Source: a phage | Length of the DNA stretch: 64,000 nucleotides | Sequence record: PQ374922.1 | Reading direction: 5' to 3' (one strand) | Shown: positions 1-27,955 of the stretch, one piece after another | Layout of the letters: each line of letters begins with the position of its first letter | Position numbering within the stretch: position 1 is the first letter of the stretch | Translations under genes and position numbers: made by a program | Notes under the pieces: model-generated | Database searches by the model: none | The model's input: only the letters and a program-made list of their open reading frames with translations | What the model was told of the DNA's origin: nothing

Positions 1-10
1 AAAAAGAACA

Positions 11-1126
11 ATGGCGATTGCTAAAATTGGCGATCTGCATATCGGGAGCCGTAATGGTTCTCGATACGTTCGCGACTTCATCAAGAACTATCTCATCAAT
101 TATTTCATTCCTGAACTTGCCGACTCTGATATCAAAGAGGTCTGGCAGTTCGGTGATACGTTTGATGTCCGCAAATTCATGTACGGTCGTGACAAAGACT
201 GGCTGAAGGATGAACTCACCCCTGCGTTGAAAGCGGCTGGTATCAAGTGGAATGGCATCGTGGGCAACCATGATATCACCCTGGAAGAGTCCAACCGCAT
301 CAACTGGCCATCCTACCTGAACGAACTCGACCCGGATGTGTACTGCTATTACAGCGAACCGACCGAAGTGATGATCGAGGGTGTCAAGACTCTGCTGCTG
401 CCTTGGATCAACAAGGAGAACTATGATGCGTCTATTAAAGCGATACAAGATACAGACGCCGAGTACTGTTTTGCGCATCTGGAGCTGGCGGGGTTCAAAA
501 TGTATCAGTCTTCTACTTGTGATCACGGTCAGATCGACGTTGCTCTGCTTTCCAAGTTTACCAGAGTCGACACGGGTCATTTCCATACCCGTTCGATGGA
601 AGGTAACATTCAATATATTGGGACTCCATATCACCTGAACTGGGAAGACTACAAAGACGGTACCAACCGTGGCTTCTATGTGGACGACATGCGTGGTGGT
701 GAGATCTTTATCCCGAACGCCGAGCACCAGACGCTGTTCCGCTATGTGGAATATGATTACACCAAGTTGTCCTCTGATGAAGAAGGTAATTGGATCGACC
801 CGGAATGGTTGAACACAGGCTTGGGTATTGAAGGGCAAATTGTTAAGGTTATTGTACAGAACCGTGACAATGCTAAGCATTATGAAAAGTTCTATGATGC
901 CATGAAGCGCTGTAAGTGCATTGACTACAACTTCATCGACCGGACGATTACTGTTGCTGCCGAGAAGGTTGAGGTCACCGAAGAGATGGTGGCGACCGAT
1001 GCGGTGGAAGTCCTGAAGAAGGATATCCGCGCCGGGAACAACATTCAGCGCCCCGACAATGTCTGTAAACTGGCAGAGCACTTCTATAATGCTGCCCAAC
1101 AACGCCTGAACAAACTGGATGCATAA
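11..1126 (+). CDS. 47: Mre11/SbcD-like recombination nuclease subunit (T4 gp47 family)
   Basis: 371-aa ORF; calcineurin-like phosphoesterase motifs GDLHIG and GNHD; directly followed by Rad50-like ORF as in the T4 46/47 pair. Confidence 0.85.
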   Translation: MAIAKIGDLHIGSRNGSRYVRDFIKNYLINYFIPELADSDIKEVWQFGDTFDVRKFMYGRDKDWLKDELTPALKAAGIKWNGIVGNHDITLEESNRINWPSYLNELDPDVYCYYSEPTEVMIEGVKTLLLPWINKENYDASIKAIQDTDAEYCFAHLELAGFKMYQSSTCDHGQIDVALLSKFTRVDTGHFHTRSMEGNIQYIGTPYHLNWEDYKDGTNRGFYVDDMRGGEIFIPNAEHQTLFRYVEYDYTKLSSDEEGNWIDPEWLNTGLGIEGQIVKVIVQNRDNAKHYEKFYDAMKRCKCIDYNFIDRTITVAAEKVEVTEEMVATDAVEVLKKDIRAGNNIQRPDNVCKLAEHFYNAAQQRLNKLDA

Positions 1127-3464
1127 CATGACTCAGAGCACAGATATCTTGACCAAATTTGGTAATCTTTTGAAGGAAGCCGACGCCCCGGTCGAGGTTG
1201 AAGTCCCATTTGAAGTGCGTAACGTTGTTACACACAAACTGACCTTCCGCAAAGGCCGCGCCAAGAACTTCCGCTCCATCGGCAATCAGTTCATGGAGAT
1301 TGATTATCAGCGCAACCCGGCCACCCTTGTTACGTCTGATGACAACGGCGCGGGTAAATCCACGATGCTGGTATGGCTGCTGTTTTTCGTACTGTACAAC
1401 GACACATACAGCAAGAAGGAGAAGAAGGCAGGTCTGGTTAACTCACAGAGCCGCAAGGAATGTGTGGGTGAGGTGGAGTTTGCCTGCCGTGGTAGCGAAT
1501 GGAAGGTTCGCCGTGGCATTAAACCTGACTTTGTTGAAGTCTACCAGATGGTGGACGGCAAGTGGTTGCAGATCGATAACGAAGCAGCCAAAGCCGACAT
1601 GAACAAGTACATCGTGAACCTCATCGGCGTGGACCAGAAGATGTTTGAGAACTCTCTGGTGCTGGGCAAAGAGAAGTTCATTCCGTTCACGGAGATGTAC
1701 ACAGCCGACCGCCGCGCCATGGTGGAGACTATCTGGGACTTGGGCTTCTTCAGCCTGATGAACGAAGATGTCAAGGCTGCCATCAAGAAAGCGAACGAAA
1801 AGCTGGACACGATAGCGAATGAATGTGCGTTGAAGGTTGTTGACCGCACCAACAAGAAGACGCAGCTACAGCAGATAGAGCGGTCCAATGCCCTTATCCA
1901 ACAGCAGTCGGCCGATATCCTTGTACAGCAACAGGAAGCCCTGACTTCCCTAGACGCTGACATCGCCGCCCAGAATGAAGAGCGCACCCGCCTCACGGCT
2001 GTGGAGTTTGAAGCCACCCAGGAAATGAAGACGGTAGAAAGCCGCCTGCATGATGAATCCATGGTGGAGATCGAGGCTGTCAAGAAAGACTTTGATGCCA
2101 AGATCCAGGCGGTGAAGGACGCCGCGCAGGACAAGGCTGACGATTATGAGCGCATCGAAGTGTCTACTGCGGAGCATGATCTTCAGGTCTTGCGTGACCG
2201 CGCCTTTACAGTGGCCGAACGCAAGAACACCCTGCTCACCGAGCGCAACACAAACCTGGACACCCTGAACGCTGCTATTCAGCGCCGCCAGCAGGGTGAG
2301 AACTTCCGTATCAAGTTCCAGACTGAAATGGAGGGGCATCAGTCGGCCATCAAGCGCTTCCACGATATGGGGACTTGCCCAACATGTACCCAACTGGTGT
2401 CTGATGACACCAAGGCGCGGATTGAGAGTGAGTACAATCCTCGGATCCAGGAACTACAGTCGAAGTTAGATCAACTGGACAAAGTTACCGCCGATATCAA
2501 TGTCCTGATCGATGATCACAAGGCTCAGGACGACAAGCTGGTTGCTGACATTGCTGTGTTGGATGCTGAACTGGATGCCATGCGCAAGCAGGCCGACGAA
2601 ATCGTTGACAACATCAAGCAGCTGCGCCGTGATATTCAAGGTTTTCATGATGCCGCCACGATTGAGTGTAATTCGCTGAACCGTGAATGCCAACAGAAGA
2701 TCCTTGACATCCGTAAGGCACTGAACGTTCGTTTTGAAGATATCACTGCTTCGCTGCAACAGACGCGAGAGAATGCCGTCAGCGGGATTAAAGCCGTCGA
2801 TGATAAGATCGCCGAGCTGAAAGTCCGTCGTGCTCCTCTCGTGGCGTCTATTGCCGATCTGGAGCGTAAACTGGCTGTACAGCCAACACCTACCACCGAC
2901 CTGGAGAACTCTATCGCTGCGTTGGAAGGTGAACTGGAGGCTCTGTATGAACTCCGTGAAGATGCAGATGAGGAACTCCAGGACTTACAGCACCTGCTGT
3001 TCTTCTTGAAGGATGACCAGACCAAGGCGCGTATCATCTCCCTGTACTTGCCATTCCTCAATAGCAAGATCAACGAGTATCTTGAAGCCCTCAACATGTT
3101 CTTGGACATCGTTGTTGACGATACCTTTGAGATCACCATGAGCGCAGCAGGTCGCAAAGGACAGAGTATCTTCTCCCTGTCTACTGGCCAGCGCAGTCGT
3201 CTGAACCTGGCTGTAACATTAGCTCTGCGCGATGTGGCTAACCTCAAGGCATCGGTGCAATGTAACCTGTTTGTCCTGGACGAAATCCTTGAGAACATGA
3301 GCGAGCGCGGGGTGCAGGAATCGGTTGAGATGTTGAAGCATAAGTTCGGCGGGAACAACCTGTTTGTTATTAGCCAGCGCGAACAGGAGTTCCAGGAATA
3401 CTTCCAACACAACATTCGCTACGGCCTGCGAAACGGCCTGACTGAAGTCATCAAGAAGGATTGA
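1119..3464 (+). CDS. 46: Rad50/SbcC-like recombination ATPase (T4 gp46 family)
   Basis: 781-aa ORF; Walker A GAGKST near N-terminus, long coiled-coil centre, C-terminal LSTGQRSRL and LFVLDEILE (signature/Walker B); start overlaps gp47 stop (ATG 1119 or 1128). Confidence 0.85.
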   Translation: MHNMTQSTDILTKFGNLLKEADAPVEVEVPFEVRNVVTHKLTFRKGRAKNFRSIGNQFMEIDYQRNPATLVTSDDNGAGKSTMLVWLLFFVLYNDTYSKKEKKAGLVNSQSRKECVGEVEFACRGSEWKVRRGIKPDFVEVYQMVDGKWLQIDNEAAKADMNKYIVNLIGVDQKMFENSLVLGKEKFIPFTEMYTADRRAMVETIWDLGFFSLMNEDVKAAIKKANEKLDTIANECALKVVDRTNKKTQLQQIERSNALIQQQSADILVQQQEALTSLDADIAAQNEERTRLTAVEFEATQEMKTVESRLHDESMVEIEAVKKDFDAKIQAVKDAAQDKADDYERIEVSTAEHDLQVLRDRAFTVAERKNTLLTERNTNLDTLNAAIQRRQQGENFRIKFQTEMEGHQSAIKRFHDMGTCPTCTQLVSDDTKARIESEYNPRIQELQSKLDQLDKVTADINVLIDDHKAQDDKLVADIAVLDAELDAMRKQADEIVDNIKQLRRDIQGFHDAATIECNSLNRECQQKILDIRKALNVRFEDITASLQQTRENAVSGIKAVDDKIAELKVRRAPLVASIADLERKLAVQPTPTTDLENSIAALEGELEALYELREDADEELQDLQHLLFFLKDDQTKARIISLYLPFLNSKINEYLEALNMFLDIVVDDTFEITMSAAGRKGQSIFSLSTGQRSRLNLAVTLALRDVANLKASVQCNLFVLDEILENMSERGVQESVEMLKHKFGGNNLFVISQREQEFQEYFQHNIRYGLRNGLTEVIKKD

Positions 3465-3466
3465 TC

Positions 3467-3631
3467 ATGAACTACGAACAAATTAAACTCGCAATCCTGG
3501 TCTTTGCATGCATCATTGACATCGTTGCGTTTTCTCGTGAAGTCGAAAGGAAAAACTACCTGAAATCACTGGGGTATCTCGGGTTCTCTGTCTGTTTCTG
3601 TTATCTACTTGCAGGTCAAATCCTGAAATGA
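3467..3631 (+). CDS. small hydrophobic protein (54 aa)
   Basis: ATG 2 nt after gp46 stop; predicted hydrophobic helices (LAILVFACIIDIVAF, YLGFSVCFCYLLAG); stop overlaps next start (ATGA); below ORF-track size cutoff. Confidence 0.35.
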   Translation: MNYEQIKLAILVFACIIDIVAFSREVERKNYLKSLGYLGFSVCFCYLLAGQILK

Positions 3632-3957
3632 AAGTCGTCCACTTCAAGAAGGAGCCATACGACGTCTACATCGGTCGTCCCGGTAAATGGGGGAACCCAT
3701 TTGAGGTCAAAGACCATGGACGAGGCGTCTGTATCGAACTGTTTGAGGACGACCTGTATGTGCGCCTGATTGAAGGGGATATCACTGAGGATGAACTCCT
3801 TGATCTTGACGGGAAGGTATTGGGGTGCTGGTGTAAGCCGCGCCCCTGCCACGGAGATGTTTACGTCAAAGTCGTCGGGCGTATTAAACTATTCCGCAAG
3901 CTGGGTAAATCCTTTACTGAACATCTGAGACAAACGTATGTCAGAAAACAAAGATGA
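3628..3957 (+). CDS. DUF4326-like protein
   Basis: 109-aa ORF with conserved-looking core VYIGRPGKWGNPF ... GCWCKPRPCHGD recalled as typical of the DUF4326 family; function unknown. Confidence 0.45.
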   Translation: MKVVHFKKEPYDVYIGRPGKWGNPFEVKDHGRGVCIELFEDDLYVRLIEGDITEDELLDLDGKVLGCWCKPRPCHGDVYVKVVGRIKLFRKLGKSFTEHLRQTYVRKQR

Positions 3958-4222
3958 AATTCAGGAATCCTGTGACATTGCTGTGGAGATATGGAATCGC
4001 AGGAATCCTCATTACCAAGTGACCGTCACTCCGAATCGTTATCTTGAGCAGGGTGGTCTGATTGTGGTTGATGCTGTACTCGCTTTCAACAAGTACCAAG
4101 ATATGCAGATCCTGGACGGCAACTTTACCGTCGCGACCAAGACGGCATGGGATGACCCTCTACAGTTCGTCTACGGCTGGCTGGAGTGCATCGAGGAATC
4201 CTACCACCTCATCTACGAATGA
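3938..4222 (+). CDS. hypothetical protein
   Basis: 94-aa ORF overlapping upstream gene end; no recognisable motif. Confidence 0.45.
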   Translation: MSENKDEIQESCDIAVEIWNRRNPHYQVTVTPNRYLEQGGLIVVDAVLAFNKYQDMQILDGNFTVATKTAWDDPLQFVYGWLECIEESYHLIYE

Positions 4223-4318
4223 GGCTGAAGGGCACTAAATACCACGTGCCCTTTATCTTTTAACCCCTGTCAGGAGGCTCAATCGAGCTGCAAGTCGACA
4301 AACATAAGGAACGCCATC

Positions 4319-4933
4319 ATGACGATGACAACGTTGAAGGTCATGGCCTTGTCCGTGACCTTTACCATTGCCAGCGGGAATGTGCACGCTTCCCAAAGTA
4401 CCACCCAATGTGTTTATAATTTCTCCGAGCAACAACTTAATACGATGGCAACCGCCTATCACGTGGGCAAGACACAAGATCTTGGCTACACTCTGGCCGC
4501 CATATCTTGGCGTGAGAGCCGCGCTGGCGAAGATGTAGTGTCAATGCGATACGGCCTCAAGGCGGCCAACATGGGAGCCTTTCAGAACAAGGTGAAGACA
4601 GTTGGTGATCGCGAAGGTTGTAAGAATCGCAAGTGCTATGCCAATGTCGCTATAAAGTTGCTGACCGACCAAGAATATGCCGCGCAAGCCGCCCTCGATG
4701 AGATGCAGTTCTGGCTGACCTATCACAATCAGAATATCCGCAAATCCCTCTCCTCTTACAATGCTGGCTTCGCCCGTAATCCTGCATCGAACGCTTATGC
4801 TGCCGACGTCGTGAAGAAAGCTAAATATCTTCAGAAATGTGTGTCCTTCGAAGGCCGGACCATCTCCGAGGTAGATCCTCAGGTGATCGCCATGAACAAG
4901 CACACAATAGAGAAACTGAAGAGGACAAGATAA
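4319..4933 (+). CDS. secreted lytic transglycosylase-like protein (SLT-domain motifs)
   Basis: N-terminal signal-peptide-like segment (LKVMALSVTFTIASGNVHA); SLT family-1 motifs in order: ES (ISWRESRAG), GxxQ (MGAFQN), AYNAG (SYNAGF). Confidence 0.55.
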   Translation: MTMTTLKVMALSVTFTIASGNVHASQSTTQCVYNFSEQQLNTMATAYHVGKTQDLGYTLAAISWRESRAGEDVVSMRYGLKAANMGAFQNKVKTVGDREGCKNRKCYANVAIKLLTDQEYAAQAALDEMQFWLTYHNQNIRKSLSSYNAGFARNPASNAYAADVVKKAKYLQKCVSFEGRTISEVDPQVIAMNKHTIEKLKRTR

Positions 4934-5571
4934 TGAACATCACTCCATCTCAGGCCGGATATGAACATATCTTGGTCTTCATTGCTCTACAGGGTGCGAA
5001 GGAAGGCATCATCGTATCCGAGTACTCAGGTACGGTTCGCCTTGCTGATTATGTCGCACCGGAGGCATTTATCAAGAAGTGTATTGACGCATGGTGCCTC
5101 TATGCCCTCAGCACATACCCTGCTCCTCCTGAGGGTGAGCTGTTGTTTACTGTGCCGACTCCGGCTGTTGGCGATACAGACGCGATCTTTGCCGATATGC
5201 TGGCCAAGGGGTATTTGGTGTATGACCTCACCCACGATGTCTACTCCTTTACTTCGCTGAACACCGTGTTTGGATTCACCATCACATCTGAAGCCAACAT
5301 CCCTGACTGGGGTATTTTGGCGTGGGGCGTTGACGGTCTGGGTGCAACCTACGCATCGTCTGACGTCGGTGCGGTTCTGATTGATGAGGGTGTCACCATG
5401 GAGCAGTACCTTGCCCAGTTCCCTCAGCACAATATCACAGGCAGCGACATCATTTTGGTCCAGCCTGGCGCTATCGCTCTCCCCCGTTTGGTGGATGGAT
5501 TGAAGCCTCAGCTGAAGGACATCATCGCAGGTATTCGATCCCACATTCCGGTTGTGAATCTGACGCCGTAA
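4933..5571 (+). CDS. hypothetical protein
   Basis: ATG at 4933 overlaps upstream stop (TAATG); 212 aa; followed by hairpin terminator. Confidence 0.55.
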   Translation: MNITPSQAGYEHILVFIALQGAKEGIIVSEYSGTVRLADYVAPEAFIKKCIDAWCLYALSTYPAPPEGELLFTVPTPAVGDTDAIFADMLAKGYLVYDLTHDVYSFTSLNTVFGFTITSEANIPDWGILAWGVDGLGATYASSDVGAVLIDEGVTMEQYLAQFPQHNITGSDIILVQPGAIALPRLVDGLKPQLKDIIAGIRSHIPVVNLTP

Positions 5572-5585
5572 AAATAATTCAATAA

Positions 5586-5604
5586 AAGGGGCTTTCGCCC
5601 CTTT
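5586..5604 (+). terminator. intrinsic terminator
   Basis: GGGGC-TTTC-GCCCC hairpin followed by TTT; after gene ending 5571. Confidence 0.55.
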
Positions 5605-5630
5605 ACTTCTTCAATATCCTTCCCTATACT
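5602..5630 (+). promoter_or_regulatory. sigma70-like early promoter, copy A (TTTACT-N17-TATACT)
   Basis: -35 5602..5607, -10 5625..5630; directly after terminator hairpin; shares extended similarity with copy at 18820. Confidence 0.5.
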
Positions 5631-5678
5631 TCATTCCATAAGCAGTACGACACCAACTTGAATAGCAGGAACTATATC

Positions 5679-6014
5679 ATGACACAACTCAAGAACTTCA
5701 CCGCCGATGACATGTTTGCCTTCCAGGGTGCTGAGCACTTTGCTGACGGCTCTGTACCTCGCATCTACTACTTCTCCGACGAAGAGATGGAAGCGTTCTT
5801 CGACCTGATGGAAAAGGACTACGAATCGAGCGACTTCGTTTATATCATCCATCACGCTGAAGGACTGACCTTGGGTTGGACGGCCAACAACGAACCAGAA
5901 GAAGTAAACTTCCCTGAAGGTATCATGTCAGAGCGCGTCGAATATCTACTGGAAGCCCTGGACCCCCACACCCTCCCGCTCTGGGCGATGTCTGTAGCCC
6001 AAGTTCAAAAATAA
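5679..6014 (+). CDS. hypothetical protein
   Basis: ATG 5679 preceded by conserved leader GGAACTATATC; acidic 111-aa product; downstream hairpin terminator. Confidence 0.55.
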   Translation: MTQLKNFTADDMFAFQGAEHFADGSVPRIYYFSDEEMEAFFDLMEKDYESSDFVYIIHHAEGLTLGWTANNEPEEVNFPEGIMSERVEYLLEALDPHTLPLWAMSVAQVQK

Positions 6015-6018
6015 GATA

Positions 6019-6040
6019 AGGGGGCTGACGCTCCCTTTTG
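6019..6040 (+). terminator. intrinsic terminator
   Basis: AGGGGGC-TGAC-GCTCCCT hairpin (one G-U pair) followed by TTTT. Confidence 0.5.
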
Positions 6041-6089
6041 GTTTCGCTAATTAGAAGAAACCGCCGTTAATTCAGTCAGGAGATATAAA

Positions 6090-9008
6090 ATGTCAAAGCT
6101 AAGTTTCCTCCAGTTCATGCAGGAAAGAGATCAGTTGGACGAAGCGTTCAACTCCGCTCCGTATGAGCTGACCATGGGCAAGAAGAACGCAGGCGATGTG
6201 TTCTTCACCTTCATCGACGAAGATGAAAAGGAATACCGTATTCAGTTCTATACCCCTCAGGGGCTGGGTAAGAGTGTTCGTCAGGTTTTCATCGGCCAGA
6301 AGCGCGGCTCCGTCTATCCTGACGCCATCGCTCGCTTCAAGAACCCAATGCGCGTTATCGCTTCCATGATCGAAGCGACCAAACAATTCATGGCGACTCC
6401 TCTGGGCAAGACCATCGATGGCTTTGCTGTCAACTTCTCTAAGAAAGCCCTGGATCGCGGTATGACCCTGATTCCTAAGATCATCCGCCAGTCCGGCCTG
6501 AAGCAGAAACTGAACGTCATGGACCTGACCTACGCGCCTGTTCCTGACCGTGGTTATGTGTGGCTAGTTCGTAAGGGTAAAGATCCGGCTCAGGTATTCG
6601 ACGGTCCGAAGATGCAGGGTATCACCTGGGATGATCCAGACAAAGTCGGTGACGTTCCGGTTCAGAACAATACTCCGGATGTGGGAGTTGGGGCTGGTTC
6701 TTCTGAAATCGAAGTCAACCGCGAGTGGTACAACAGCTCGGACACTGGTCTGGAGTTGAAGAGCGGGCGAGACCCGATTCGTGGAAATTACGTCCGTCTG
6801 ATAAGCGGTTCGAAAGAAGTAGCCACATTCTATGGTTATGATTTTGACAAATATCCAGACGGGACTGAGGTATCTTGGAATATGAAGCGCGGCTTCACCA
6901 ACCAAGACTTGGTCGGTGCGTCCATGACCAAACAGAAGAAAGGTATGTACGATCAGTACACTTTCAAGAAAGGTACTCAGATAATTCTGGTGGTGGACGT
7001 TGACACCAGCAATGACACCAGCAATGACACCAGCAATGGCAACGGATGGAAATTAACTTCAAACGGGGATCAGCCCATGTTGTTATGGGCTGGTAAGGAG
7101 AGAGGCCGCACGAACACGGCAAATATCGCTCCCCACTACAATGAGCCGGGCGTGTATGTTGGCGCATACATGAATGAGAAACCTGTGCGTGGGCAAAGTG
7201 CTGATTTCATTGCTCGTCAGTTGAAATTACCGCAAGTCCCTATCAATATCCTGAATGATTTCACCATGGCGTCTACAAAATTTTGGAAAGGTTCTCAAAA
7301 CAGTTCAGACAGAAATAACCCAGCCAACATTATCGGTTCTGGAACTGCTGTTATTGATGCCAAACGACTTGGTGCTCGAGAAGTAAACGTTGAACGATTC
7401 AAAAACGGTGTTCGCATGCGTTCTCAAAACGGTGACGTCGACATCAGTATTTCTGACCCAGACTTTTCAAATGCAGCAAGTGCGACTGATGCTGCTACTG
7501 CCTCTGTTGTGGTCAAGAACGGGCGTTACGAAGGTGCCATCAATTCAAAGCGCAAGATTGCCCGCACCTCGTACGAGCAGGGTACTGAATGGGATATCAT
7601 CGGTGTCAACGGGGAAACCCTTGTCTCTATCAAGTTGAACAAAGTGTCTAAATCCGCATCGGATTCGACCGAGGGTGCAACCAGTGTTGATCAATTACGT
7701 GACAGTGGTTTCATCGCTCGTGTTCTGGGTATCATTGATACCAACGTTGGGCTGGACACTTCTATTCTTCCTGGTGAAAACATCCGTCGCGTGGGCGCTG
7801 GTCGTTACACGACGGCAGGCGGGTTGGTTATCGTTGTCAACTTCACAAACGTCCTCGCTGGTTTCGTTCAATACTCAGTTTTCAGCGAAATTGCTGAAGA
7901 GGAGAACGTGGCCAAAGGTAGCGCCCGTGACGTCGCCAATGCGGTAATTGCGTCCATCTTTGAGGTTGCCAAGACCCAGTACACTGGGAAATGGGAAATT
8001 AGCGCAGTGCCAACAAGCGCTCCATATCCTATCAAAGCCATTCGCCGTTCTCGGGGCTGGGGTTATGTGGAAACCGCAAACTGGACTCTGACAGTGTCCG
8101 ACGCTGTCCTGAATCGTGTGAAGCCAGGGAAAACTGCCCTACTGGAACTCATCAAAGAACCTCCGCGTGGCAAGCACCCGCTGGAAATCATCCCAGAGAA
8201 GGGCGACAAGACCCTGATGCTGAAAGATCGTATTACCGGGGCCATCTATGGTTCTATCGACCTGAATGCCCAAGGCGCTGATCTGGTCAACTCTGGAACC
8301 CTGAAGATGCCACGCAACGCCATGGTGTTTGGTGAGACTGTCAACGGTATGTCCATTCGGTGGGATGTCAATTTCCCCGAAACGGGAAAATACGCCGGTG
8401 CTTCTATGATAACCAACGTGACCTATTACTACGACAAAGGTAAAGTTGCATTCACCCCAATTGTCTCTCAGAAAGGGCGTACCCTGAACAATCCGAAGAC
8501 ATATGAACTTCCTTTAAACAAAGATATGGTCCAGAGTGTGATTGATGAGATTTCATCAAAAATGGAATATCTTTCCAGAAACCTCCAACAGTTGAAAAGT
8601 CAGTCATACAACCCAAACCAGGTGTTCTTGAACGATATAACCATCACGGATAAAGGTGAAGTGATTTGGAATGATTACAACTTGTCTGACGGCAAAGTTA
8701 CACAAATTATGCTGTCCATGATAAGCGCAGAAAATAAACGTCTAGAGAAAGTGGCAAACAAGCCGGATATCAATATCACATTGCCAAAGAAACAAGCTGA
8801 AGTGATAGAATTTATAAACCGGATGATCGACATTGATCTCACCCCTTATGTGAGAACCCCCAAAAAACGTGATGTGGTATTATTTGACTCTTCTGAATTG
8901 TCGATGAACCAACTCAACAACATAGAACGCCTGGGAAGAGAAACAGGAAAATGGTCTCTTCAGTCAAACGGCGGTATGGGTCATGCACTATTTCTGAATG
9001 TTTGGTGA
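6090..9008 (+). CDS. large hypothetical protein (972 aa) with internal (DTSN)x3 repeat
   Basis: Uninterrupted 2.9-kb ORF with good SD (AGGAG) upstream; flanked by hairpins; no catalytic motif recognised; 3-prime third is AT-richer than the rest. Confidence 0.65.
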   Translation: MSKLSFLQFMQERDQLDEAFNSAPYELTMGKKNAGDVFFTFIDEDEKEYRIQFYTPQGLGKSVRQVFIGQKRGSVYPDAIARFKNPMRVIASMIEATKQFMATPLGKTIDGFAVNFSKKALDRGMTLIPKIIRQSGLKQKLNVMDLTYAPVPDRGYVWLVRKGKDPAQVFDGPKMQGITWDDPDKVGDVPVQNNTPDVGVGAGSSEIEVNREWYNSSDTGLELKSGRDPIRGNYVRLISGSKEVATFYGYDFDKYPDGTEVSWNMKRGFTNQDLVGASMTKQKKGMYDQYTFKKGTQIILVVDVDTSNDTSNDTSNGNGWKLTSNGDQPMLLWAGKERGRTNTANIAPHYNEPGVYVGAYMNEKPVRGQSADFIARQLKLPQVPINILNDFTMASTKFWKGSQNSSDRNNPANIIGSGTAVIDAKRLGAREVNVERFKNGVRMRSQNGDVDISISDPDFSNAASATDAATASVVVKNGRYEGAINSKRKIARTSYEQGTEWDIIGVNGETLVSIKLNKVSKSASDSTEGATSVDQLRDSGFIARVLGIIDTNVGLDTSILPGENIRRVGAGRYTTAGGLVIVVNFTNVLAGFVQYSVFSEIAEEENVAKGSARDVANAVIASIFEVAKTQYTGKWEISAVPTSAPYPIKAIRRSRGWGYVETANWTLTVSDAVLNRVKPGKTALLELIKEPPRGKHPLEIIPEKGDKTLMLKDRITGAIYGSIDLNAQGADLVNSGTLKMPRNAMVFGETVNGMSIRWDVNFPETGKYAGASMITNVTYYYDKGKVAFTPIVSQKGRTLNNPKTYELPLNKDMVQSVIDEISSKMEYLSRNLQQLKSQSYNPNQVFLNDITITDKGEVIWNDYNLSDGKVTQIMLSMISAENKRLEKVANKPDINITLPKKQAEVIEFINRMIDIDLTPYVRTPKKRDVVLFDSSELSMNQLNNIERLGRETGKWSLQSNGGMGHALFLNVW
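7002..7037 (+). repeat. in-frame tandem repeat (GACACCAGCAAT)x3 encoding (DTSN)x3
   Basis: Three perfect 12-nt units inside the 972-aa ORF. Confidence 0.9.
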
Positions 9009-9082
9009 AACCAGCTGGACTTGAGAACAGAATAAAGCCCCTCCGGGGGCTAATTACATCTAAATCCCCGAGGAGAGATCCA

Positions 9083-9388
9083 ATGAAACCGTTTATCGAA
9101 TATTTTAAAGAACAAGCCGCTAAACCTCAGACCCATGCTGGTGTCCAGGGTAAGACCGTATCCATCACCAAGCAAGCTGACGGCACTCAGTGGTGTTCCG
9201 GCGCTACCGTGACCCAGATCACTCCTGACAATCAGGCGGATATCTACAACCTGGAGTTAACCAACGGCAACACCATCAAGGTGAAGCTGACCCCAGACCA
9301 GACTCACGGTATCTCCCAAGGTCAGGAAGTCGTTGCTGTCCATGACGGTTTCGAATTCTTCTTTGGCAAGTCTGTCGACAAAGACTAA
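9083..9388 (+). CDS. hypothetical protein
   Basis: ATG 9083 with strong SD GAGGAG; 101 aa; followed by strong intrinsic terminator. Confidence 0.6.
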   Translation: MKPFIEYFKEQAAKPQTHAGVQGKTVSITKQADGTQWCSGATVTQITPDNQADIYNLELTNGNTIKVKLTPDQTHGISQGQEVVAVHDGFEFFFGKSVDKD

Positions 9389-9428
9389 GTGAAACCATCA
9401 AGATGACCCTGGTCAAGCCGTGATTACA

Positions 9429-9460
9429 ATCCCCCTAAATACAGGGGGATTTCTTTTTCT
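9429..9460 (+). terminator. intrinsic terminator
   Basis: ATCCCCC-loop-GGGGGAT hairpin followed by TTCTTTTTCT. Confidence 0.65.
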
Positions 9461-9472
9461 GAGGACAACATC

Positions 9473-9826
9473 ATGGTCAATGCGAGTATTTTCATCAACC
9501 GTGGACTGCTTGCTATAGCCCACTCTCATGCCTTACACTTCGTTACAACGTCCTATGCCAAGCACAAGGCACTCGGGGAGTTCTACGGGGATCTAGAGGA
9601 CTTGCTGGACACGTTTACCGAAGCATACATCGGTGCGGGTGGTCAGTATGTTCCATCATTCGAGAATATCAAATTGTACAACCCAGACCCTATCTCCTAT
9701 ATTAACAGTGTGGTGATAGACGTCGATGGCATCTACAAGCAGTGTGACTCCCACCTTCAGAGCACTCTTGACGATATCAAGACACTGTGCTATCAGACGA
9801 TCTACAAACTGAAGCAGCTGTCGTAA
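9473..9826 (+). CDS. hypothetical protein
   Basis: 117-aa ORF, SD GAGGA upstream; no motif assigned. Confidence 0.5.
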   Translation: MVNASIFINRGLLAIAHSHALHFVTTSYAKHKALGEFYGDLEDLLDTFTEAYIGAGGQYVPSFENIKLYNPDPISYINSVVIDVDGIYKQCDSHLQSTLDDIKTLCYQTIYKLKQLS

Positions 9827-9883
9827 GTCAATACGAAATAAAGGCATATAATTTTGCTCATTATTCACCGAAAGGAAAGGACA

Positions 9884-10495
9884 ATGAGCAAAATCTTTAT
9901 CCCGTCACACCGCGAAGGATGTGAAATCGCGGCCAACTACCTGCGCGGTCGCATGAACTGCGGCGCTGTCTTCATCGAGCCAAATTCGTTTGACAACAAA
10001 GAATCACCTGATGCCATCGGGTTCCGTTCCGGCGGTTGCTCTATCCTGATGGAAGTGAAGGTGTCTCGCTCTGATTTCCTTACCGACAAGAAGAAGCCCC
10101 ATCGGATGGACCCCACAACAGGTATGGGCGCATACCGCTTTTATGTCTGCCCTCAGGAAGTAATCAGGGTTGAAGACCTACCACCAAAGTGGGGGTTGTT
10201 CTACTTCACACCCCGCAAGTCCCTGATGCCAGTTCATGTGCCAGACATGCAGTACTCTTCATTGTCATCACCGGAGCATTATCAGAAGTACCTTGATGAA
10301 CAGATCAAGAGAGGAAGAACCGTTACCCGGCATATGCGCAGCTACATGGAACTCCTCGACGGCTTCGCCCACTTTGAGCGCAACATGGCTGGGGAACAGA
10401 ATATCCTGTATGGGGCTTGGCGTCAACTGTGTATAGCTCAAAGTCGTGGTGTAGACTATACTGTGACCGAAGTGTTCCAGAGGCCGAAGATCTAA
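9884..10495 (+). CDS. PD-(D/E)xK nuclease-fold protein (VRR-NUC-like motif)
   Basis: Motif SPDAIGF ... ILMEVKVSRSD matches PD...(D/E)xK core; SD AAGGA 7 nt upstream of ATG 9884. Confidence 0.5.
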   Translation: MSKIFIPSHREGCEIAANYLRGRMNCGAVFIEPNSFDNKESPDAIGFRSGGCSILMEVKVSRSDFLTDKKKPHRMDPTTGMGAYRFYVCPQEVIRVEDLPPKWGLFYFTPRKSLMPVHVPDMQYSSLSSPEHYQKYLDEQIKRGRTVTRHMRSYMELLDGFAHFERNMAGEQNILYGAWRQLCIAQSRGVDYTVTEVFQRPKI

Positions 10496-11151
10496 TGAAC
10501 TATCAAAAAATTCATGACGCTATAATAACCAGAGCCAGAGATAGAATTTTAACTGGTTACAAGGAAAAACACCACGTCATCCCTCTATCTCTTGGTGGTG
10601 AAGACAGGAACTACAATAAAGTTTCTCTCACAGCATCTGAACATTATATTATTCATCTTCTGTTGGCCAAAATTCACGGCGGGGTAATGGTCAGCGCATT
10701 TAAAAAGATGCGCCACTTGACCTCTAATCCTCCAAACAATAAAGAGTTTGCCGTCAGGAGGGAATTGTTGTGTACAACAGCCGGGGAGAAAGCGAAAGAT
10801 CCACAAAAACGGAAAAGGCATTCTCTGAAAATGAAGGGTAGAAACCATACAGAATCTGCCAAATTATCAATATCCAATTCCATGACTGGGGAGAATAACC
10901 CAATGAAGGGGATACCTGCATGGAGGAACCCGACCAACATCAGCCGAGGAACTCATAAAAATTGGTTGGCGGCTGGAGAAATTTATGACTTGTACGTCAC
11001 AGGGAAATTTTTAAGAGTTATCGACCTCTTCAATGCTTGCAAATTGCCGACATCATACGGAACGGTTTCCACCATAAAAACAAAATTGGAATTGGGTTGG
11101 GAGCCAAGGAAAGACGCGGATTGGTTGCAATTCTATGAGGAACACAAATGA
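10495..11151 (+). CDS. HNH homing endonuclease
   Basis: HNH motif HHVIPLSLGG...N...LTASEH; AT-rich relative to neighbours; inserted between nuclease ORF and primase with TAATG/ATGA overlaps. Confidence 0.7.
   Translation: MNYQKIHDAIITRARDRILTGYKEKHHVIPLSLGGEDRNYNKVSLTASEHYIIHLLLAKIHGGVMVSAFKKMRHLTSNPPNNKEFAVRRELLCTTAGEKAKDPQKRKRHSLKMKGRNHTESAKLSISNSMTGENNPMKGIPAWRNPTNISRGTHKNWLAAGEIYDLYVTGKFLRVIDLFNACKLPTSYGTVSTIKTKLELGWEPRKDADWLQFYEEHK
10495..11151 (+). mobile_element. free-standing homing endonuclease gene (HEG)
   Basis: Intergenic HNH ORF with lower GC than flanking replication genes. Confidence 0.5.
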
Positions 11152-12206
11152 AATTTCTCGACGAACAATTCATAAATTACGTTGCTCCCAGACTCGATAA
11201 ATTCAAGTGGGAACGCGTTGGGTCTGTCGCAAATTTTAGATGCCCGCTTTGTGGAGATTCTCTCAAAAGTGCTAATAAACGACGCGGTTATTTTTTCTTC
11301 GATCGAGATAATGACTGCTTTCGGTTTAAATGTCATAATTGCCATAACATGAATGGCTGGTCATTTGAGTTCTGGCTGAAGAAGTTCGACGAACGCCTCT
11401 CAACAGAGTACAACATGGAGAAGTTCCGTCTGCTGGGTGATACGTCGGGCAGACCACTTCCTTCCCTGAAGCCGCTGCCAAAGCTGACACAGACCGCCCG
11501 TATTGGCTCAGTGGCGGCGAAACGCGACGAGAGCCTCCTCGGCAATATGCTACGGCTTGATCTGCTACCGCCTGACCATAAGGCTCGACAGTACGTACAG
11601 TGGCGTGGACTGCCGGAGAGCACTTTGTCCCTCCTGTATTACACACAACACTTCCGCCAGGATCTACTCCAGTTCGAAACGAACCCTGAGAAGCAACTGA
11701 AAATTCCCGATGACGAGCGCCTGGTAATCCCATTCTGGACGCAAGATGGGCGGATGAAGATCGTTCAGGGGCGTGCATTCGACAAGAATGCGACACTGCG
11801 CTACGCAACAGTCAAGCCCAAGGATGAAGACACTAAGGTGTATGGTGAAGACCGGGTAAACATTCACAAGACCAAGCTGGTTGTGGAAGGTCCGATTGAC
11901 AGCCTGTTCCTACCCAACTGTCTTGCATCGGCCGACGCTGATCTACTGAGCGTGAAGGGTGACATTTATATCCCTGATAATCAGTACCGGAACCCGCAGG
12001 TGTGTGACGGTATTCAGAAGATGATAGATAAAGGTGTCAAGGTTGTACTGTTCCCACCAGACGTTCCTTGGAAGGATATCAACGACATGGTCATGCCATC
12101 AAAGGGCAACATGTCCATACAAGACCTCCTGAAGCTGATCGCCAAGAACGTTTACCAAGGTATGGCCGCATCATTACAATTCGCTGAACTGAGGAAAGTG
12201 CGATGA
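11148..12206 (+). CDS. 61: DNA primase (T4 gp61 family)
   Basis: N-terminal zinc finger CPLCGDS...CHNCH and TOPRIM-like LVVEGPIDSLF, matching remembered T4 gp61 (CPVCGDS, VLEGPIDSLF). Confidence 0.9.
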   Translation: MKFLDEQFINYVAPRLDKFKWERVGSVANFRCPLCGDSLKSANKRRGYFFFDRDNDCFRFKCHNCHNMNGWSFEFWLKKFDERLSTEYNMEKFRLLGDTSGRPLPSLKPLPKLTQTARIGSVAAKRDESLLGNMLRLDLLPPDHKARQYVQWRGLPESTLSLLYYTQHFRQDLLQFETNPEKQLKIPDDERLVIPFWTQDGRMKIVQGRAFDKNATLRYATVKPKDEDTKVYGEDRVNIHKTKLVVEGPIDSLFLPNCLASADADLLSVKGDIYIPDNQYRNPQVCDGIQKMIDKGVKVVLFPPDVPWKDINDMVMPSKGNMSIQDLLKLIAKNVYQGMAASLQFAELRKVR

Positions 12207-12409
12207 CGTTAGAAGAACTGAACAAACTGGACGACGGAGAGATCGTGCGGGGGTACTTGAAATCTCGTGAGGGGTATGTCTTATCTGGGGAAGAATCTCT
12301 GAGTTTCATCCACGGCTGGAAGAATGGTCAGGCGGACTTCCATGGGGTTCCCATCAGTGATGAGCAGGCCGAATTGGCTCGCGAGTTTGTAAGATTTCGC
12401 CCGAACTAA
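12203..12409 (+). CDS. hypothetical protein
   Basis: 68-aa ORF translationally coupled to primase (ATGA overlap); followed by terminator. Confidence 0.45.
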   Translation: MTLEELNKLDDGEIVRGYLKSREGYVLSGEESLSFIHGWKNGQADFHGVPISDEQAELAREFVRFRPN

Positions 12410-12437
12410 AACTTTTTACTTCACATCACTTCCCTCT

Positions 12438-12462
12438 AGGCCTCATTCGACGAGGCCTTTTA
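12438..12462 (+). terminator. intrinsic terminator
   Basis: AGGCCTC-loop-GAGGCCT hairpin followed by TTTT. Confidence 0.6.
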
Positions 12463-12474
12463 AAATACTTCAAA

Positions 12475-12495
12475 AATAATTTTTTAAAAATTATT
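12475..12495 (+). repeat. AT-rich perfect palindrome upstream of promoter C
   Basis: AATAATTTTT t AAAAATTATT (10-bp arms, 1-nt centre); candidate UP element or regulator site. Confidence 0.4.
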
Positions 12496-12504
12496 GAAAA
12501 AGAC

Positions 12505-12533
12505 TTTACTCTTCAATAATGATGCACTATTAT
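12505..12533 (+). promoter_or_regulatory. sigma70-like early promoter, copy C (TTTACT-N17-TATTAT)
   Basis: -35 12505..12510, -10 12528..12533; AT-rich palindrome 12475..12495 just upstream. Confidence 0.5.
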
Positions 12534-12606
12534 AGTTCACATAGGGCGGCAACACACCGCCGAATGAAAAGTGAAATGAACCAACTACATTATGAGGAAT
12601 TACATC

Positions 12607-13095
12607 ATGGCTACCACCAAAACTCTGATCACCAACGGCACCATCTCTTTCGAACTGAACACCGAAGTTGCTAAAGTTGAAATGTTCCGCATCGCTCAGG
12701 CAGCTGGCTTCACTGGTGGTAAAACTTCCTTCATGAACCTGCTGAACGGTAAAGTGAAATCGACAAACGGCTTCACCCTGGTAGAGCAGGTTGTGGTTGA
12801 CAAAGCTGTGGTTGATAAGACTGCCGACAAAGTTGGTATGCTGAAAAACCTGGGTCACGACATCCACATTGTCGAAGCAAACACCGAAACTTACGGCACC
12901 ATCGTAGTCGGTAAAGGTCGCATCCAGCTGAACCCGCTGAACAACGGTTCCTTCTCTGTGATGGTCTTCCCTAAGAAGGGATATGACAACACCGACATCG
13001 TGAAAGCTGTTGGCGGCGAAGCAAAAGCTCAGTACGTCAAAATGGGTAAACTGAGCGCCGACGCAGTTGAAGCTCTGGTGAGCAAACTGGCCTAA
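12607..13095 (+). CDS. hypothetical protein, probably abundant
   Basis: Own sigma70-like promoter and terminator; SD GAGGAA; apparently highly biased codon usage (judged by eye); 162 aa. Confidence 0.65.
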   Translation: MATTKTLITNGTISFELNTEVAKVEMFRIAQAAGFTGGKTSFMNLLNGKVKSTNGFTLVEQVVVDKAVVDKTADKVGMLKNLGHDIHIVEANTETYGTIVVGKGRIQLNPLNNGSFSVMVFPKKGYDNTDIVKAVGGEAKAQYVKMGKLSADAVEALVSKLA

Positions 13096-13241
13096 TCCAG
13101 ACGTATAACATAGGGGAGGCAACTCCCCCTATCAGGTCTTGGGAGGAGATCACAGTCATTCAATCCTCTTTAGGCGCTCTCTGGGTTGCTGACACATTCA
13201 GAACAAAGTCTCCCCCAGCTCCTCGAGTAGTTCACTTTCAC

Positions 13242-13249
13242 TTTAAATA
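13242..13249 (+). promoter_or_regulatory. late-promoter-like motif TTTAAATA upstream of endolysin
   Basis: One mismatch to T4 late consensus TATAAATA; lies in 5-prime arm of RBS hairpin, 31 nt before ATG. Confidence 0.4.
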
Positions 13250-13275
13250 CCTCTGCATTCATTGTGGAGGTATTT
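13245..13275 (+). promoter_or_regulatory. RBS-sequestering hairpin at endolysin start
   Basis: 9-bp perfect inverted repeat AAATACCTC / GAGGTATTT (13245..13253, 13267..13275) with 13-nt loop; 3-prime arm contains the GGAGG Shine-Dalgarno. Confidence 0.55.
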
Positions 13276-13279
13276 TCTT

Positions 13280-14074
13280 ATGGCCATTCTAAAACTTGGC
13301 AACCGTGGCACTGAAGTGAAGGCACTTCAGGATAGCCTCAACAAAATCGGCTTCACCCTCGTCGCTGATGGTATCTTTGGCAAGGCAACAGAGAACGCCG
13401 TCAAGACTGTTCAGGCGGGTGCGGGGCTTGTCATTGATGGTATCGTGGGTCCAAAGACCTCCTATGCTATTCGCAACGCCGGAGACGCCCATCAGGATCA
13501 TCTAACTGAGTCAGACCTGATTGATGCTGCTAACGATCTGGGTGTTGACCTTGCCTCTGTCAAGGCGGTGAATCAGGTTGAGTCGCGCGGCACGGGCTTC
13601 ACCAAGTCAGGTAAGATCAAGACATTATTTGAGCGCCACATCATGTATAAGAAGCTGATGGCGAAGTTCGGACAGGCTCGGGCGAATGCCATGGGGCATA
13701 TGTACCCGACGTTGGTCAGTCCTTCCGCAGGCGGGTACACGGGAGGCGACGCGGAGTTGGATCGACTTCATGCGGCCATCAACATCGATGAGGATTGTGC
13801 GTACGAGAGCGCCTCTTACGGTCTCTTCCAGATCATGGGATTCAACTGCCAGGTCTGTGGATATGCCAACGCCAAGGAGATGTTCAACGACTTCCTGACA
13901 GGAGAACGTGCTCATTTGATGGCATTCGTGAAGTTCATCAAGGCTGACGCCAAGCTCTGGCAGGCTCTGAAGGACAAGAACTGGGCTGAGTTTGCGCGGC
14001 GCTATAATGGTCCGGCGTATGCCAAGAACCAGTACGACACGAAGCTCGTAGCAGCATACAAGAGTTTCAGTTAA
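13280..14074 (+). CDS. endolysin (peptidoglycan-binding domain plus muramidase-like catalytic domain)
   Basis: N-terminal PG_binding_1-like repeat (LQDSLNKIGF...DGIFGKATENAVKTVQ...DGIVGPKT); C-terminal domain resembling phage N-acetylmuramidase endolysins; ATG 13280 with GGAGG SD. Confidence 0.7.
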   Translation: MAILKLGNRGTEVKALQDSLNKIGFTLVADGIFGKATENAVKTVQAGAGLVIDGIVGPKTSYAIRNAGDAHQDHLTESDLIDAANDLGVDLASVKAVNQVESRGTGFTKSGKIKTLFERHIMYKKLMAKFGQARANAMGHMYPTLVSPSAGGYTGGDAELDRLHAAINIDEDCAYESASYGLFQIMGFNCQVCGYANAKEMFNDFLTGERAHLMAFVKFIKADAKLWQALKDKNWAEFARRYNGPAYAKNQYDTKLVAAYKSFS

Positions 14075-14079
14075 CTCAA

Positions 14080-14104
14080 AGGCCGGAAACGGCCTTTTCT
14101 TTAT
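14080..14104 (+). terminator. intrinsic terminator after endolysin
   Basis: AGGCCG-GAAA-CGGCCT followed by TTTTCTTT. Confidence 0.65.
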
Positions 14105-14176
14105 CCAATCCTCAGGTATGCTGGGGTTGTCACCTTAATTAGAGGTGATGACACCCTGAGATATAGGAAGGTTCCC

Positions 14177-15019
14177 ATGCAATCTGCCACCAAAGTTGTA
14201 AGTAAGAAGCCAGCGGGCAAGACCAAGTCAGCACGTAAGAAAGAGACAATTCAGAAAGAAGATGACTGGATGAAGTTCTCTAAAGGTGACTTCAGAATCG
14301 CTCCGTTCAATGGCCTCTCAGAAAATCAGAACCTCGCGTATCAATCTGCTCTTGAAGAAAACCTCACCATCGCAATCGGTCCGGCAGGCACAGGTAAATC
14401 GTACTGTGGTGCCTCAGCCGCCGCCAAGCTCCTGATCGATAAAGTGGTCAGCAAGATCGTCATCACGCGTTCTCCGTTGCCAACAGGCCAGACTGCAGGC
14501 TTCCGCCCTGGCGACACATACGAAAAGTTGATGCCATATCTGATGCCCCTGATTCAGACGCTGAAGAAGGTGCTGAAGACTGACACAGGCAGCGACGGTT
14601 TCTTCAACTATCTGTGGGAGAAGCGGATCATTGAGATCCAGGATCTGGAGACCATCAAGGGAATGACCTTCGACGACACCTTCCTGATCATTGAAGAAGC
14701 GCAGGAATGTGATATGGAGCAGCTGAAGAACCTACTGACCCGCGCATCCGACTCGACTTACATCTTCGTCAACGGTGACATCAAACAGTCCAACAAGCGC
14801 CTGCGCGACAGCGCCCTTGAAAAGTACGTCAGTTCCTTCCGCGACTTCAACGCCAAGCTGGAGGCCGGAACCCTGAAGATCGATGGTGTTGGCGTCAGTG
14901 ATGAGTACCCTGAATGGGTTCAGCCGTTCAGTATCATCGAGTTCGACAAGTCTGACCGCAACGGGCGCGGCGACTTCACCCGCCTGATGCTGGAAGTCAA
15001 CGATCTGTACGACATTTAA
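14177..15019 (+). CDS. phoH: PhoH-like ATPase
   Basis: Walker A GPAGTGKS and overall PhoH-like layout; common phage auxiliary gene. Confidence 0.8.
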   Translation: MQSATKVVSKKPAGKTKSARKKETIQKEDDWMKFSKGDFRIAPFNGLSENQNLAYQSALEENLTIAIGPAGTGKSYCGASAAAKLLIDKVVSKIVITRSPLPTGQTAGFRPGDTYEKLMPYLMPLIQTLKKVLKTDTGSDGFFNYLWEKRIIEIQDLETIKGMTFDDTFLIIEEAQECDMEQLKNLLTRASDSTYIFVNGDIKQSNKRLRDSALEKYVSSFRDFNAKLEAGTLKIDGVGVSDEYPEWVQPFSIIEFDKSDRNGRGDFTRLMLEVNDLYDI

Positions 15020-15102
15020 GTAACTCGCCAACCCTCCCCGCCGCCTTCAATCTACGAGGGCGGCGTATAATAAAACCTGCGTAAACAAACCCGAGGAACA
15101 CC

Positions 15103-17385: not shown

Positions 17386-17416
17386 ATTGGTCTAAACATA
17401 CTACCGTTATATCATC

Positions 17417-17441
17417 AGGGGTGAGAGATCACCCCTTATTA
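17417..17441 (+). terminator. intrinsic terminator after nrdA
   Basis: AGGGGTGA-GAGA-TCACCCCT followed by TATTAAT. Confidence 0.5.
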
Positions 17442-17455
17442 ATCAGGAAAGAAAC

Positions 17456-27902: not shown

Positions 27903-27936
27903 GGTGAGGACTCCACTTAAATAAAATAACTGTTAT

Positions 27937-27944: not shown

Positions 27945-27955
27945 GGAGTTGACAA

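Follow-up and report, generated by a model that had tools for sequence, protein, structure and literature searches.

What kind of element stands, five times over, in front of genes in the 64 000-nt stretch of phage DNA analyzed here (sequence record PQ374922.1; the whole stretch is called the window)? A sequence-only reading had pointed to a family of five near-identical sigma-70-like promoters at positions 5602, 12505, 18820, 29861 and 38357 (sites A to E below) and had proposed a duplicated early expression cassette rather than chance. The five-site family is confirmed in substance. We consider it likely that the sites are cassettes combining a host sigma-70 early promoter of the T4 'early' type, a terminator and a ribosome-binding site (RBS), similar to the PeSL of T4-like phages, in which a sigma-70-like early promoter is joined to a stem-loop terminator. 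This kind of element is already known from T4-likes; the result is fairly ordinary and its novelty modest.

Bases 5000-20000 of the window matched Escherichia phage YX22 (OR776998) with 99.0% identity over 100% of the length; more distant matches were found to Shigella phage Ag3, Dickeya phage LIMEstone1 and many Salmonella and Klebsiella phages. The window phage is a ViI-like phage (Ackermannviridae, Aglimvirinae). The plus strand of the window corresponds to the minus strand of YX22, from ∼66.6 kb down to 2.7 kb. Window genes are YX22 gene calls transferred by tblastn, and intergenic regions were listed from these. For comparison we used syntenic stretches of 40-50 kb from LIMEstone1 (Limestonevirus), S118 and CBA120 (Kuttervirus), Klebsiella phage Madison (Taipeivirus-like) and Erwinia phage phiEa2809 (Nezavisimistyvirus). 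Searches for related loci seeded with single window proteins returned close relatives only.

The pairs of hexamers were found as described: TTTACT-17-TATACT at 5602 and 18820, TTTACT-17-TATTAT at 12505, TTTACA-17-TATTAT at 29861 and TTTACT-17-TAATAT at 38357. All five are intergenic and lie in sense orientation ahead of a gene; the spacer is 17 bp at each of them and 16-17 bp in their orthologues. The pattern written down in the sequence-only reading had six matches in the window, all on the plus strand, vs 0.01 expected. This pattern was composed after the sites had been seen; the published T4/PST consensus, TTTACW-N17-TAYWAT, provides an independent test. With at most one mismatch allowed, the consensus matched the same six places (0.81 expected), a number reached by none of 100 shuffles; two of the five intergenic sites match it exactly and three with one mismatch. 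The sixth match, at 51236-51264 and exact to the pattern of the sequence-only reading, lies antisense within a minus-strand coding sequence and is lost in the 95%-identical YX22 gene; it is most likely a chance occurrence. A slightly relaxed scan of the whole YX22 genome produced eight intergenic members, all on one strand and pointing into genes, with those beyond the window's five at 142015, 75889 and 74187. Intergenic regions of the same genome were almost devoid of matches to the canonical TTGACA-N17-TATAAT.

One could argue that such sites are chance look-alikes of sigma-70 promoters in A/T-rich intergenic DNA, devoid of promoter function. A generic promoter scan of window positions 1-20000 did stay at background, with 17 promoter-like sites vs 19.8 expected, and one of the six pattern matches (51236) looks like chance. 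However, six matches vs 0.01 to 0.8 expected, five of them intergenic, in sense orientation and behind hairpins, are hard to reconcile with this explanation, and it is contradicted by the conservation of both hexamers in position and sequence over four genera while the spacer drifts. We regard it as extremely improbable.

The conservation is seen in every comparison that covers the sites. Sites A to D occur at orthologous intergenic positions in all five further genomes (LIMEstone1, S118, CBA120, Madison and phiEa2809); the region of site E is covered in LIMEstone1 and CBA120 only, and the site is present in both. An alignment of sites A and C from the window, LIMEstone1, S118, Madison and phiEa2809 has as invariant parts CTTTACT, TAT..TT..C, TGAA in the leader and ACT.A..ATG. 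Over the 10 sequences, from four genera, CTTTACT and TATnnTT do not change and the 3′ half of the spacer varies; a five-genome alignment of site B has the same pattern. Hexamers that stay invariant at fixed spacing while the distal spacer drifts have the appearance of a promoter footprint. The proximal spacer is conserved as well, which is atypical for a sigma-70 promoter. The designation 'sigma-70-like' thus holds: the hexamers stand at the optimum sigma-70 spacing, are kept across at least four genera and match the T4 early consensus.

A more distant relative bears on the polymerase that would read these promoters. In Vibrio phage D506, GGTTGCGT-N16-TATAAT, with a TTGCGY −35, stands ahead of the orthologue of the site B gene, and two similar copies are nearby. 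The PeSLs of the Vibrio T4-likes KVP40 and nt-1 have TTGYVH-N17-TAWWAT, and those of T4/PST have TTTACW (Comeau et al. 2014, PMC4122927); in T4 itself, where promoters were read directly within the first 50 kb, we saw gTTTACW-N17-(tgg)TATAAT. As the −35 of D506 resembles that of Vibrio T4-likes, the −35 variant tracks the host rather than the phage lineage. Of the arguments available for host sigma-70 polymerase as the reader of these sites, host tracking is the strongest, and together with the T4 analogy it suggests early timing.

Furthermore, a stable hairpin precedes all five promoters (−9.4 to −16.8 kcal/mol, z-scores of −3.2 to −5.1); shuffled sequences never folded as well. The sequence-only reading had placed a terminator hairpin directly before the promoter four times. 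Hairpins are present at five of five sites; they abut the −35 only at 5602 and 18820, where the last bases of the stem are the TTT of the −35 and the bases of the terminator U-tract are those of the −35. At B, D and E, 13-44 nt separate the hairpin from the −35 downstream of it.

Sites A and C are alike partly because the terminator U-tract is itself the −35. Their similarity reaches beyond the hexamers: pairwise alignment of the two regions gave a local score of 56 vs a null of 14.2 ± 2.3 and bore out the identical 17-mer GGAACTATATCATGACA. It had been described as about 80 nt long; it is significant, and it is split into three modules. The first consists of the hairpin end, the −35 and the proximal spacer, the second of the −10 plus TTC, and the third of TTGAA..GGAACTATATCATGACA, with the translation start region TTGAA..GGAACTAYATCATG. 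A continuous 80-nt homology was rejected; the stretch from the −10 to the Shine-Dalgarno sequence (SD) alone is not significant (p about 0.1). The word 'near-identical' therefore overstates the likeness of promoters that have functional modules alone in common. Gene duplication was also rejected as the origin of the similarity, the 111-aa and 153-aa products behind sites A and C being unlike (BLASTP E = 1.9). Both proteins belong to PHROG families of unknown function and have no Pfam match. Since they are not paralogues, the thing duplicated is a regulatory module and not a gene.

Comparison of the open reading frames (ORFs) behind the conserved promoters leads further. At site A the promoter and leader are kept up to the ATG (…CATAAGCAGTACGACACCAACTTGAAWAGCAGGAACTATATYATG) in Aglimvirinae, Kuttervirus and Madison, while the ORF is exchanged: 111 aa in the window, an unrelated 91 aa in Kuttervirus and Madison. 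In phiEa2809 the promoter boxes alone are kept, followed by a third unrelated ORF of 105 aa. With tblastn, the window's 111-aa ORF had no match in the compared stretches of the other genomes, nor had the 91-aa ORF anywhere in YX22. The 105-aa ORF is a homologue of CBA120 orf176, which lies at a distance of ∼35 kb and follows a further A-type cassette copy (TTCAATAAacggggTTTACTtcTTCAATAAaccccgTATACTtcattccataagcag…ggaactacatcATG). At cassette C, an additional 77-aa ORF follows immediately in Kuttervirus. The genes headed by sites B, D and E are conserved. A promoter and leader conserved to the ATG with the ORF exchanged behind them argue for a cassette and not for chance. Of the proposed duplicated early expression cassette, then, the cassette stands, its duplication is that of the regulatory module, and 'early' is the part suggested by the analogy with T4. 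Recombination through the cassettes would presumably account for the exchange.

In the sequence of events that we propose, an intrinsic terminator hairpin, presumably an efficient one, would stop incoming transcription; host sigma-70 RNA polymerase would start anew at the adjoining promoter (consensus C/G-TTTACW, 17-bp spacer, TAnnnT), and the transcript would begin with a largely unstructured start region (…TTGAA..GGAACTAYATCATG). The cassettes would thereby restart transcription at the heads of prereplicative units, with sites B (12505), D (29861) and E (38357) driving long operons of nucleotide metabolism and replication, and sites A and C driving short units, each with one or two genes whose function is unknown. 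The module of ∼100 bp, recurring round the genome, would serve as a portable unit of expression, with unrelated ORFs exchanged behind it. As ViI-like phages were reported to be without MotA, AsiA, Alt and ModA (CBA120 paper, 2011, PMC3184105), a plain sigma-70 route would be the simple one.

Several points weigh against this interpretation. The hexamers are moderate matches (TTTACT 4/6, TATACT 5/6), and a TGn extended −10 is found at none of the five sites, unlike strong T4 early promoters. Contacts with sigma-70 do not account for a conserved element, TTCAATAA or its reverse complement, which T4 early promoters lack. The annotators of LIMEstone1 labelled three orthologous sites 'middle' (HE600015). 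Eight promoters are few for a 155-kb genome, and clusters of small genes on the other strand have none; other early promoters must therefore exist. Virion DNA has hypermodified thymidines and the promoter boxes are T-rich. Finally, our searches of the literature yielded neither mapped transcription start sites nor RNA-seq or in vitro transcription data from an Ackermannviridae phage.

The element TTCAATAA deserves separate consideration. Most members of the family have it, in either orientation, within the proximal spacer, immediately before the −35 or at both places; seven of its ten plus-strand copies are intergenic (p about 5e-7). At site B, at YX22 142015 and at sites A and D of phiEa2809 it forms with TTATTGAA an inverted repeat across the −35, ∼19 bp from centre to centre. 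A scan of IMG/VR with TTTACT-N1-3-TTCAATAA gave scattered single matches among the matches listed and was uninformative. The element could be a PeSL-style AT-rich stem-loop, a UP-like element or the site of a regulator.

The last of these possibilities would make the sites middle-type promoters: a phage activator would recognize the TTCAATAA/TTATTGAA box around −30 and at the flank of the −35, in the fashion of MotA, and the promoters would fire only once early proteins have been made, or in both the early and the middle period. The conservation of the proximal spacer element across genera, its enrichment in intergenic DNA and the inverted repeat at the four sites just named are in line with such an activator, as are the absence of TTCAATAA from T4 early promoters and the occurrence of the same hexamer upstream of TATAAT in a second promoter-like family (see below). 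The LIMEstone1 record names the orthologues of A, B and E 'putative middle promoter' and that of D 'putative early promoter', beside factor-independent terminators; at site C the terminator is marked and the promoter is not (HE600015). The elements were called with fuzznuc, MEME and PHIRE from their resemblance to T4 consensus sequences (Adriaenssens et al. 2012, PMC3296691), the 'middle' call being a fuzznuc match to a T4 consensus. The MotA box itself, (a/t)(a/t)TGCTT(t/c)a with its centre at −30 and 12 ± 1 bp from the −10, is absent at the sites, which have only CTT/ACTT fragments (TTCTTCA, CTCTTCA). MotA/AsiA homologues are not reported in ViI-like phages. Moreover, MotA-type promoters dispense with the −35, yet no part of the sites here varies less than the −35 hexamer; at window sites C and D the box is degenerate though −35 and −10 are kept, and it is seen in either orientation at varying distance, unlike a fixed activator site. 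We thus think a middle-type function quite unlikely and retain early sigma-70 cassettes as the preferred interpretation.

The leaders downstream of the promoters have a common start motif. The related leader AAYTAYATCATG, noticed earlier, was found exactly at 5670, 12598, 18890, 38408 and, on the minus strand, 59333; with one mismatch it has eight matches vs 1.2 expected, and four of the five exact copies come after family promoters. Leader pairs A/B, A/E and B/E exceed shuffled sequences (z-scores of 3.8-6.0); the similarity of the site D leader to the others is not above that of shuffles. A conserved RNA structure or riboswitch was rejected: the folds of leaders A, C, D and E are less stable than those of shuffled sequences (z of +0.5 to +1.3), and the hairpin in the leader of site B is without covariation. 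Rfam had zero matches at the gathering threshold across the whole window. A RegB-type cleavage site (GGAGRAYARAA) was rejected too, as the leader GGAACTATATC does not fit it.

The motif may have a role of its own. As RNA, AAYUAYAUCAUG, with UUGAA and GGAA upstream, could be an operator for a RegA-like translational repressor, which would make the cassettes a co-repressed early regulon and not just carriers of a strong RBS. The motif is far above chance, four of five exact copies follow family promoters and the leaders are unstructured (z of +0.5 to +1.3). In position it either overlaps the AUG or closely precedes it, as do the RegA sites of T4, which are unstructured and A+U-rich, with the consensus AAAAUUGUUAUGUAA from SELEX (PMC3014915). 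A RegA homologue is annotated in YX22 at 87152-87616, and the start regions of T4 genes 44 and 45, cttgaatgaggaaattATG and tttgaattgaaggaaattacATG (at 31866 and 32603 of the T4 stretch read), are close to the start module. This resemblance, however, comes down to a short A/T-rich stretch plus an SD; the RegA gene's own start is without the motif; and the conservation is equally explicable by efficient initiation or by copying of the cassette. The upstream TTGAW was rejected as a general feature of start regions (7 observed over all genes vs 7.2 expected). We also rejected a link to RegA through the clamp-loader gene: in YX22 a copy of the motif precedes the gp44 homologue, but CBA120 does not have it. 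That copy, AACTATATCATG at YX22 89073-89084, is 10 nt upstream of the gp44-like clamp-loader start, at the end of an inserted gene. On balance, a RegA-like operator appears unlikely.

One could speculate that the family has two operators of its own beyond the T4 scheme, the TTCAATAA/TTATTGAA half-sites bracketing the −35 and AAYUAYAUCAUG; should phage proteins bind them, the phage would have its own prereplicative switch. The half-sites are common to the second TATAAT family and are kept even in Vibrio relatives. An HU/TF1-like DNA-binding protein may be the binder of TTCAATAA/TTATTGAA, and the RegA homologue that of AAYUAYAUCAUG. If true, the Ackermannviridae switch would replace the missing MotA/AsiA/Alt machinery; we hold this to be a doubtful proposition. 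Candidate trans-acting factors in these phages are a RegB-like protein (named so in LIMEstone1), an HU/TF1-like protein and a RegA-like repressor, with coordinates listed as 4319-4933 in the window and 70596-70874 and 87152-87616 in YX22.

The features of the five sites, all on the plus strand, are as follows. The terminator hairpin of site A, AAAGGGGC-TTTC-GCCCCTTT (5585-5604; −13.5 kcal/mol, z of −4.55), is kept in LIMEstone1, S118 and Madison, and its 3′ arm with the U-tract provides the first bases of the −35. The putative promoter (5602-5630) has TTTACT at 5602-5607, the spacer element TTCAATAT at 5610-5617 and TATACT at 5625-5630; orthologues in four other genomes retain CTTTACT and TATAMT. 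Behind it come an unstructured leader (z of +0.93) with the translation start module TTGAATAGCAGGAACTATATCATG (5658-5681) and the gene 5679-6014, which encodes the 111-aa protein (phrog_9866, function unknown) and forms a unit by itself, which the terminator at 6018-6037 closes.

At site B the hairpin AGGCCTC…GAGGCCT followed by TTTT (12438-12462; −12.1 kcal/mol, z of −3.57) has an orthologue given as a factor-independent terminator in the LIMEstone1 GenBank record (HE600015). The putative promoter region (12491-12533) contains an A/T-rich upstream tract, clear at this site only, the −35 TTTACT (12505-12510) bracketed by the inverted repeat of TTATTGAA (12491-12498) and TTCAATAA (12512-12519), and the −10 TATTAT (12528-12533). 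The leader (12540-12609) starts with the hairpin CAUAGGGCGG…CCGCCGAAUG (12540-12566), whose stem is invariant and whose loop is variable in five genomes, and ends with the tandem AACTACATTATG (12583-12594) and AATTACATCATG (12598-12609). The gene that follows, 12607 (or 12592)-13095, codes for a 162-aa protein conserved across the family. Between this gene and the endolysin gene, at 13096-13279, ∼470 bp with two small ORFs of YX22 (13159-13679 of the YX22 stretch compared) are missing from the window, where diverged remnants remain.

Site C has the hairpin AAAGCCCCTC-ATT-GAGGGGCTTT (18800-18822; −16.6 kcal/mol, z of −3.77), which overlaps the −35, and a putative promoter (18820-18848) with TTTACT at 18820-18825 and TATACT at 18843-18848, conserved in five genomes. 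The translation start module, by its sequence TTGAAAGCGGGAACTATATCATG, extends over 18879-18901; the genes behind it, from transferred calls, are 18899-19360 (153 aa) and 19366-19716.

Site D (29814-29889) is composed of a hairpin (29814-29835; −9.4 kcal/mol), TTCAATAA (29846-29853), the −35 TTTACA (29861-29866) and the −10 TATTAT (29884-29889); it heads gene 29958-30794 and an operon of thymidine modification and replication. Downstream, a 5-hydroxymethyldeoxyuridine (5-hmdU) DNA kinase was recognized at 30870-31529 (Pfam PF18748, E = 6e-109), and synteny with annotated relatives places thymidylate synthase, dNMP (deoxynucleoside monophosphate) kinase and dUTPase after it. The kinase and its syntenic neighbours indicate a thymidine-hypermodification cluster directly downstream of site D.

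Site E (38316-38419) contains a hairpin (38316-38344; −16.8 kcal/mol), TTCAATAA (38348-38355), the −35 TTTACT (38357-38362), the −10 TAATAT (38380-38385) and the leader motif AACTACATCATG (38408-38419). The start of its gene, 38417/38429-39622, is ambiguous; YX22 annotates 38429. The CBA120 orthologue of site E carries a tandem duplication of the unit TTTACTTCAATAAAAC (…cTTTACTTCAATAAAACTTTACTTCAATAAAAC…) at the promoter, which suggests slippage or recombination within the cassette. Outside the five sites, an isolated copy of the start module, TTTGATTTGAGAAACTACATCATG, is found on the minus strand at 59333-59344, where gene 58847-59335 starts; upstream of it a family promoter is absent.

A second promoter-like family in the window has TTCAAT (or ATTGAAG) 9-17 bp upstream of TATAAT/TATWMT, usually ∼35 nt ahead of a start codon, with six matches vs 0.10 expected and three vs 0.24 for the reverse orientation. 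Its putative members are at 15046-15071, 24638-24663, 25810-25833, 37576-37603, 40122-40147 and 40579-40601 on the plus strand, at 50444-50467 and 53903-53925 on the minus strand, and also at 30820-30850. A G/C-rich hairpin with a T-run after it often contains or adjoins the TATAAT, e.g. GGGGCTGCTATAATAGCAGCTCCTTTTG. Vibrio phage D506 has the same type in intergenic regions at 28640, 29902 and 31539 of the stretch compared.

Motifs (C/T)TAAATA, e.g. CACTAAATACC and CCCCTAAATACAGGGGG, lie in the intergenic regions 4223-4318, 9009-9082, 9389-9472, 13096-13279, 24140-24190, 27669-27955 and 48301-48350 and are similar to the T4 late promoter TATAAATA; for the same regions the LIMEstone1 record has many 'putative late promoters' (HE600015). 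Of nine occurrences of TAAATA, six are intergenic. Two long stretches of the window, 21778-22140 (363 nt; between gp5-like and gp26-like baseplate genes) and 54332-54648 (317 nt), are without a transferred gene call.

Four of the five sites are already marked as putative promoters in the LIMEstone1 GenBank record. That annotation differs from ours in having two classes and a 3-nt 'CTT' −35, vs the TTTACW-N17 reading given here; in the accompanying paper (PMC3296691) we did not find a treatment as one family, the conservation across genera or the leader. The CBA120 paper listed eight probable sigma-70 promoters and stated that early promoters could not be identified by informatics (PMC3184105); the GenBank record of CBA120 has zero promoter features in 27001-100000 (73 kb). 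What is recognized here is a single cross-genus family (∼8 per genome) that matches the T4 early/PeSL consensus; the mechanism is not of a new kind. The sites are candidate start points for prereplicative units of ribonucleotide reductase, thymidine hypermodification, helicase and ligase, and they offer compact, defined promoter/RBS parts for engineering ViI-like phages. The cassettes would also explain the swapping of small genes of unknown function at fixed intergenic joints.

How do the cassettes compare with known systems? T4 middle (MotA/AsiA) promoters are similar in that a sigma-70 −10 is preceded by a conserved box near −30; they differ in that the sites here have a conserved −35 and lack the TGCTT MotA box. 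T4 early promoters are closer: they have a gTTTAC(A/T) −35, a 17-bp spacer and a TATAAT-like −10 (Hinton 2010, PMC2988021), an A/T-rich upstream region, which is present here at some sites, and further conserved positions beyond the canonical elements. However, T4 usually has the extended −10 tggTATAAT, whereas the sites here are without TGn; T4 early promoters are helped by Alt ADP-ribosylation, and Alt is reported absent in ViI-likes (PMC3184105); and there are ∼39 of them in T4 vs ∼8 in this genome.

The closest likeness is to the PeSL, described as a sigma-70-like early promoter with a stem-loop terminator, conserved over ∼100 bp that begin in an AT-rich stop region and run through SD and ATG, and flanking variable ORFans (Arbiol et al. 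2010, PMC2839356). In both cases a sigma-70-type promoter and a G/C stem-loop terminator form a composite repeated round the genome; the stem-loop is upstream of the −35 or overlaps it (here at A and C); the T4/PST consensus TTTACW-N17-TAYWAT is identical (PMC4122927), and unrelated ORFs are exchanged behind the cassette. The conservation over ∼100 bp, from the AT-rich post-stop region to SD and ATG, has its counterpart as well, here modular rather than continuous. PeSLs were described from Straboviridae-type T4-likes and not from Ackermannviridae, and neither mini-circles nor recent recombination are in evidence here. The ∼8 copies per genome include several that head conserved core operons instead of hyperplastic ORFan regions, and the cassettes of the ViI-like phages carry, in addition, the conserved element TTCAATAA and the very specific start module GGAACTAYATCATG.

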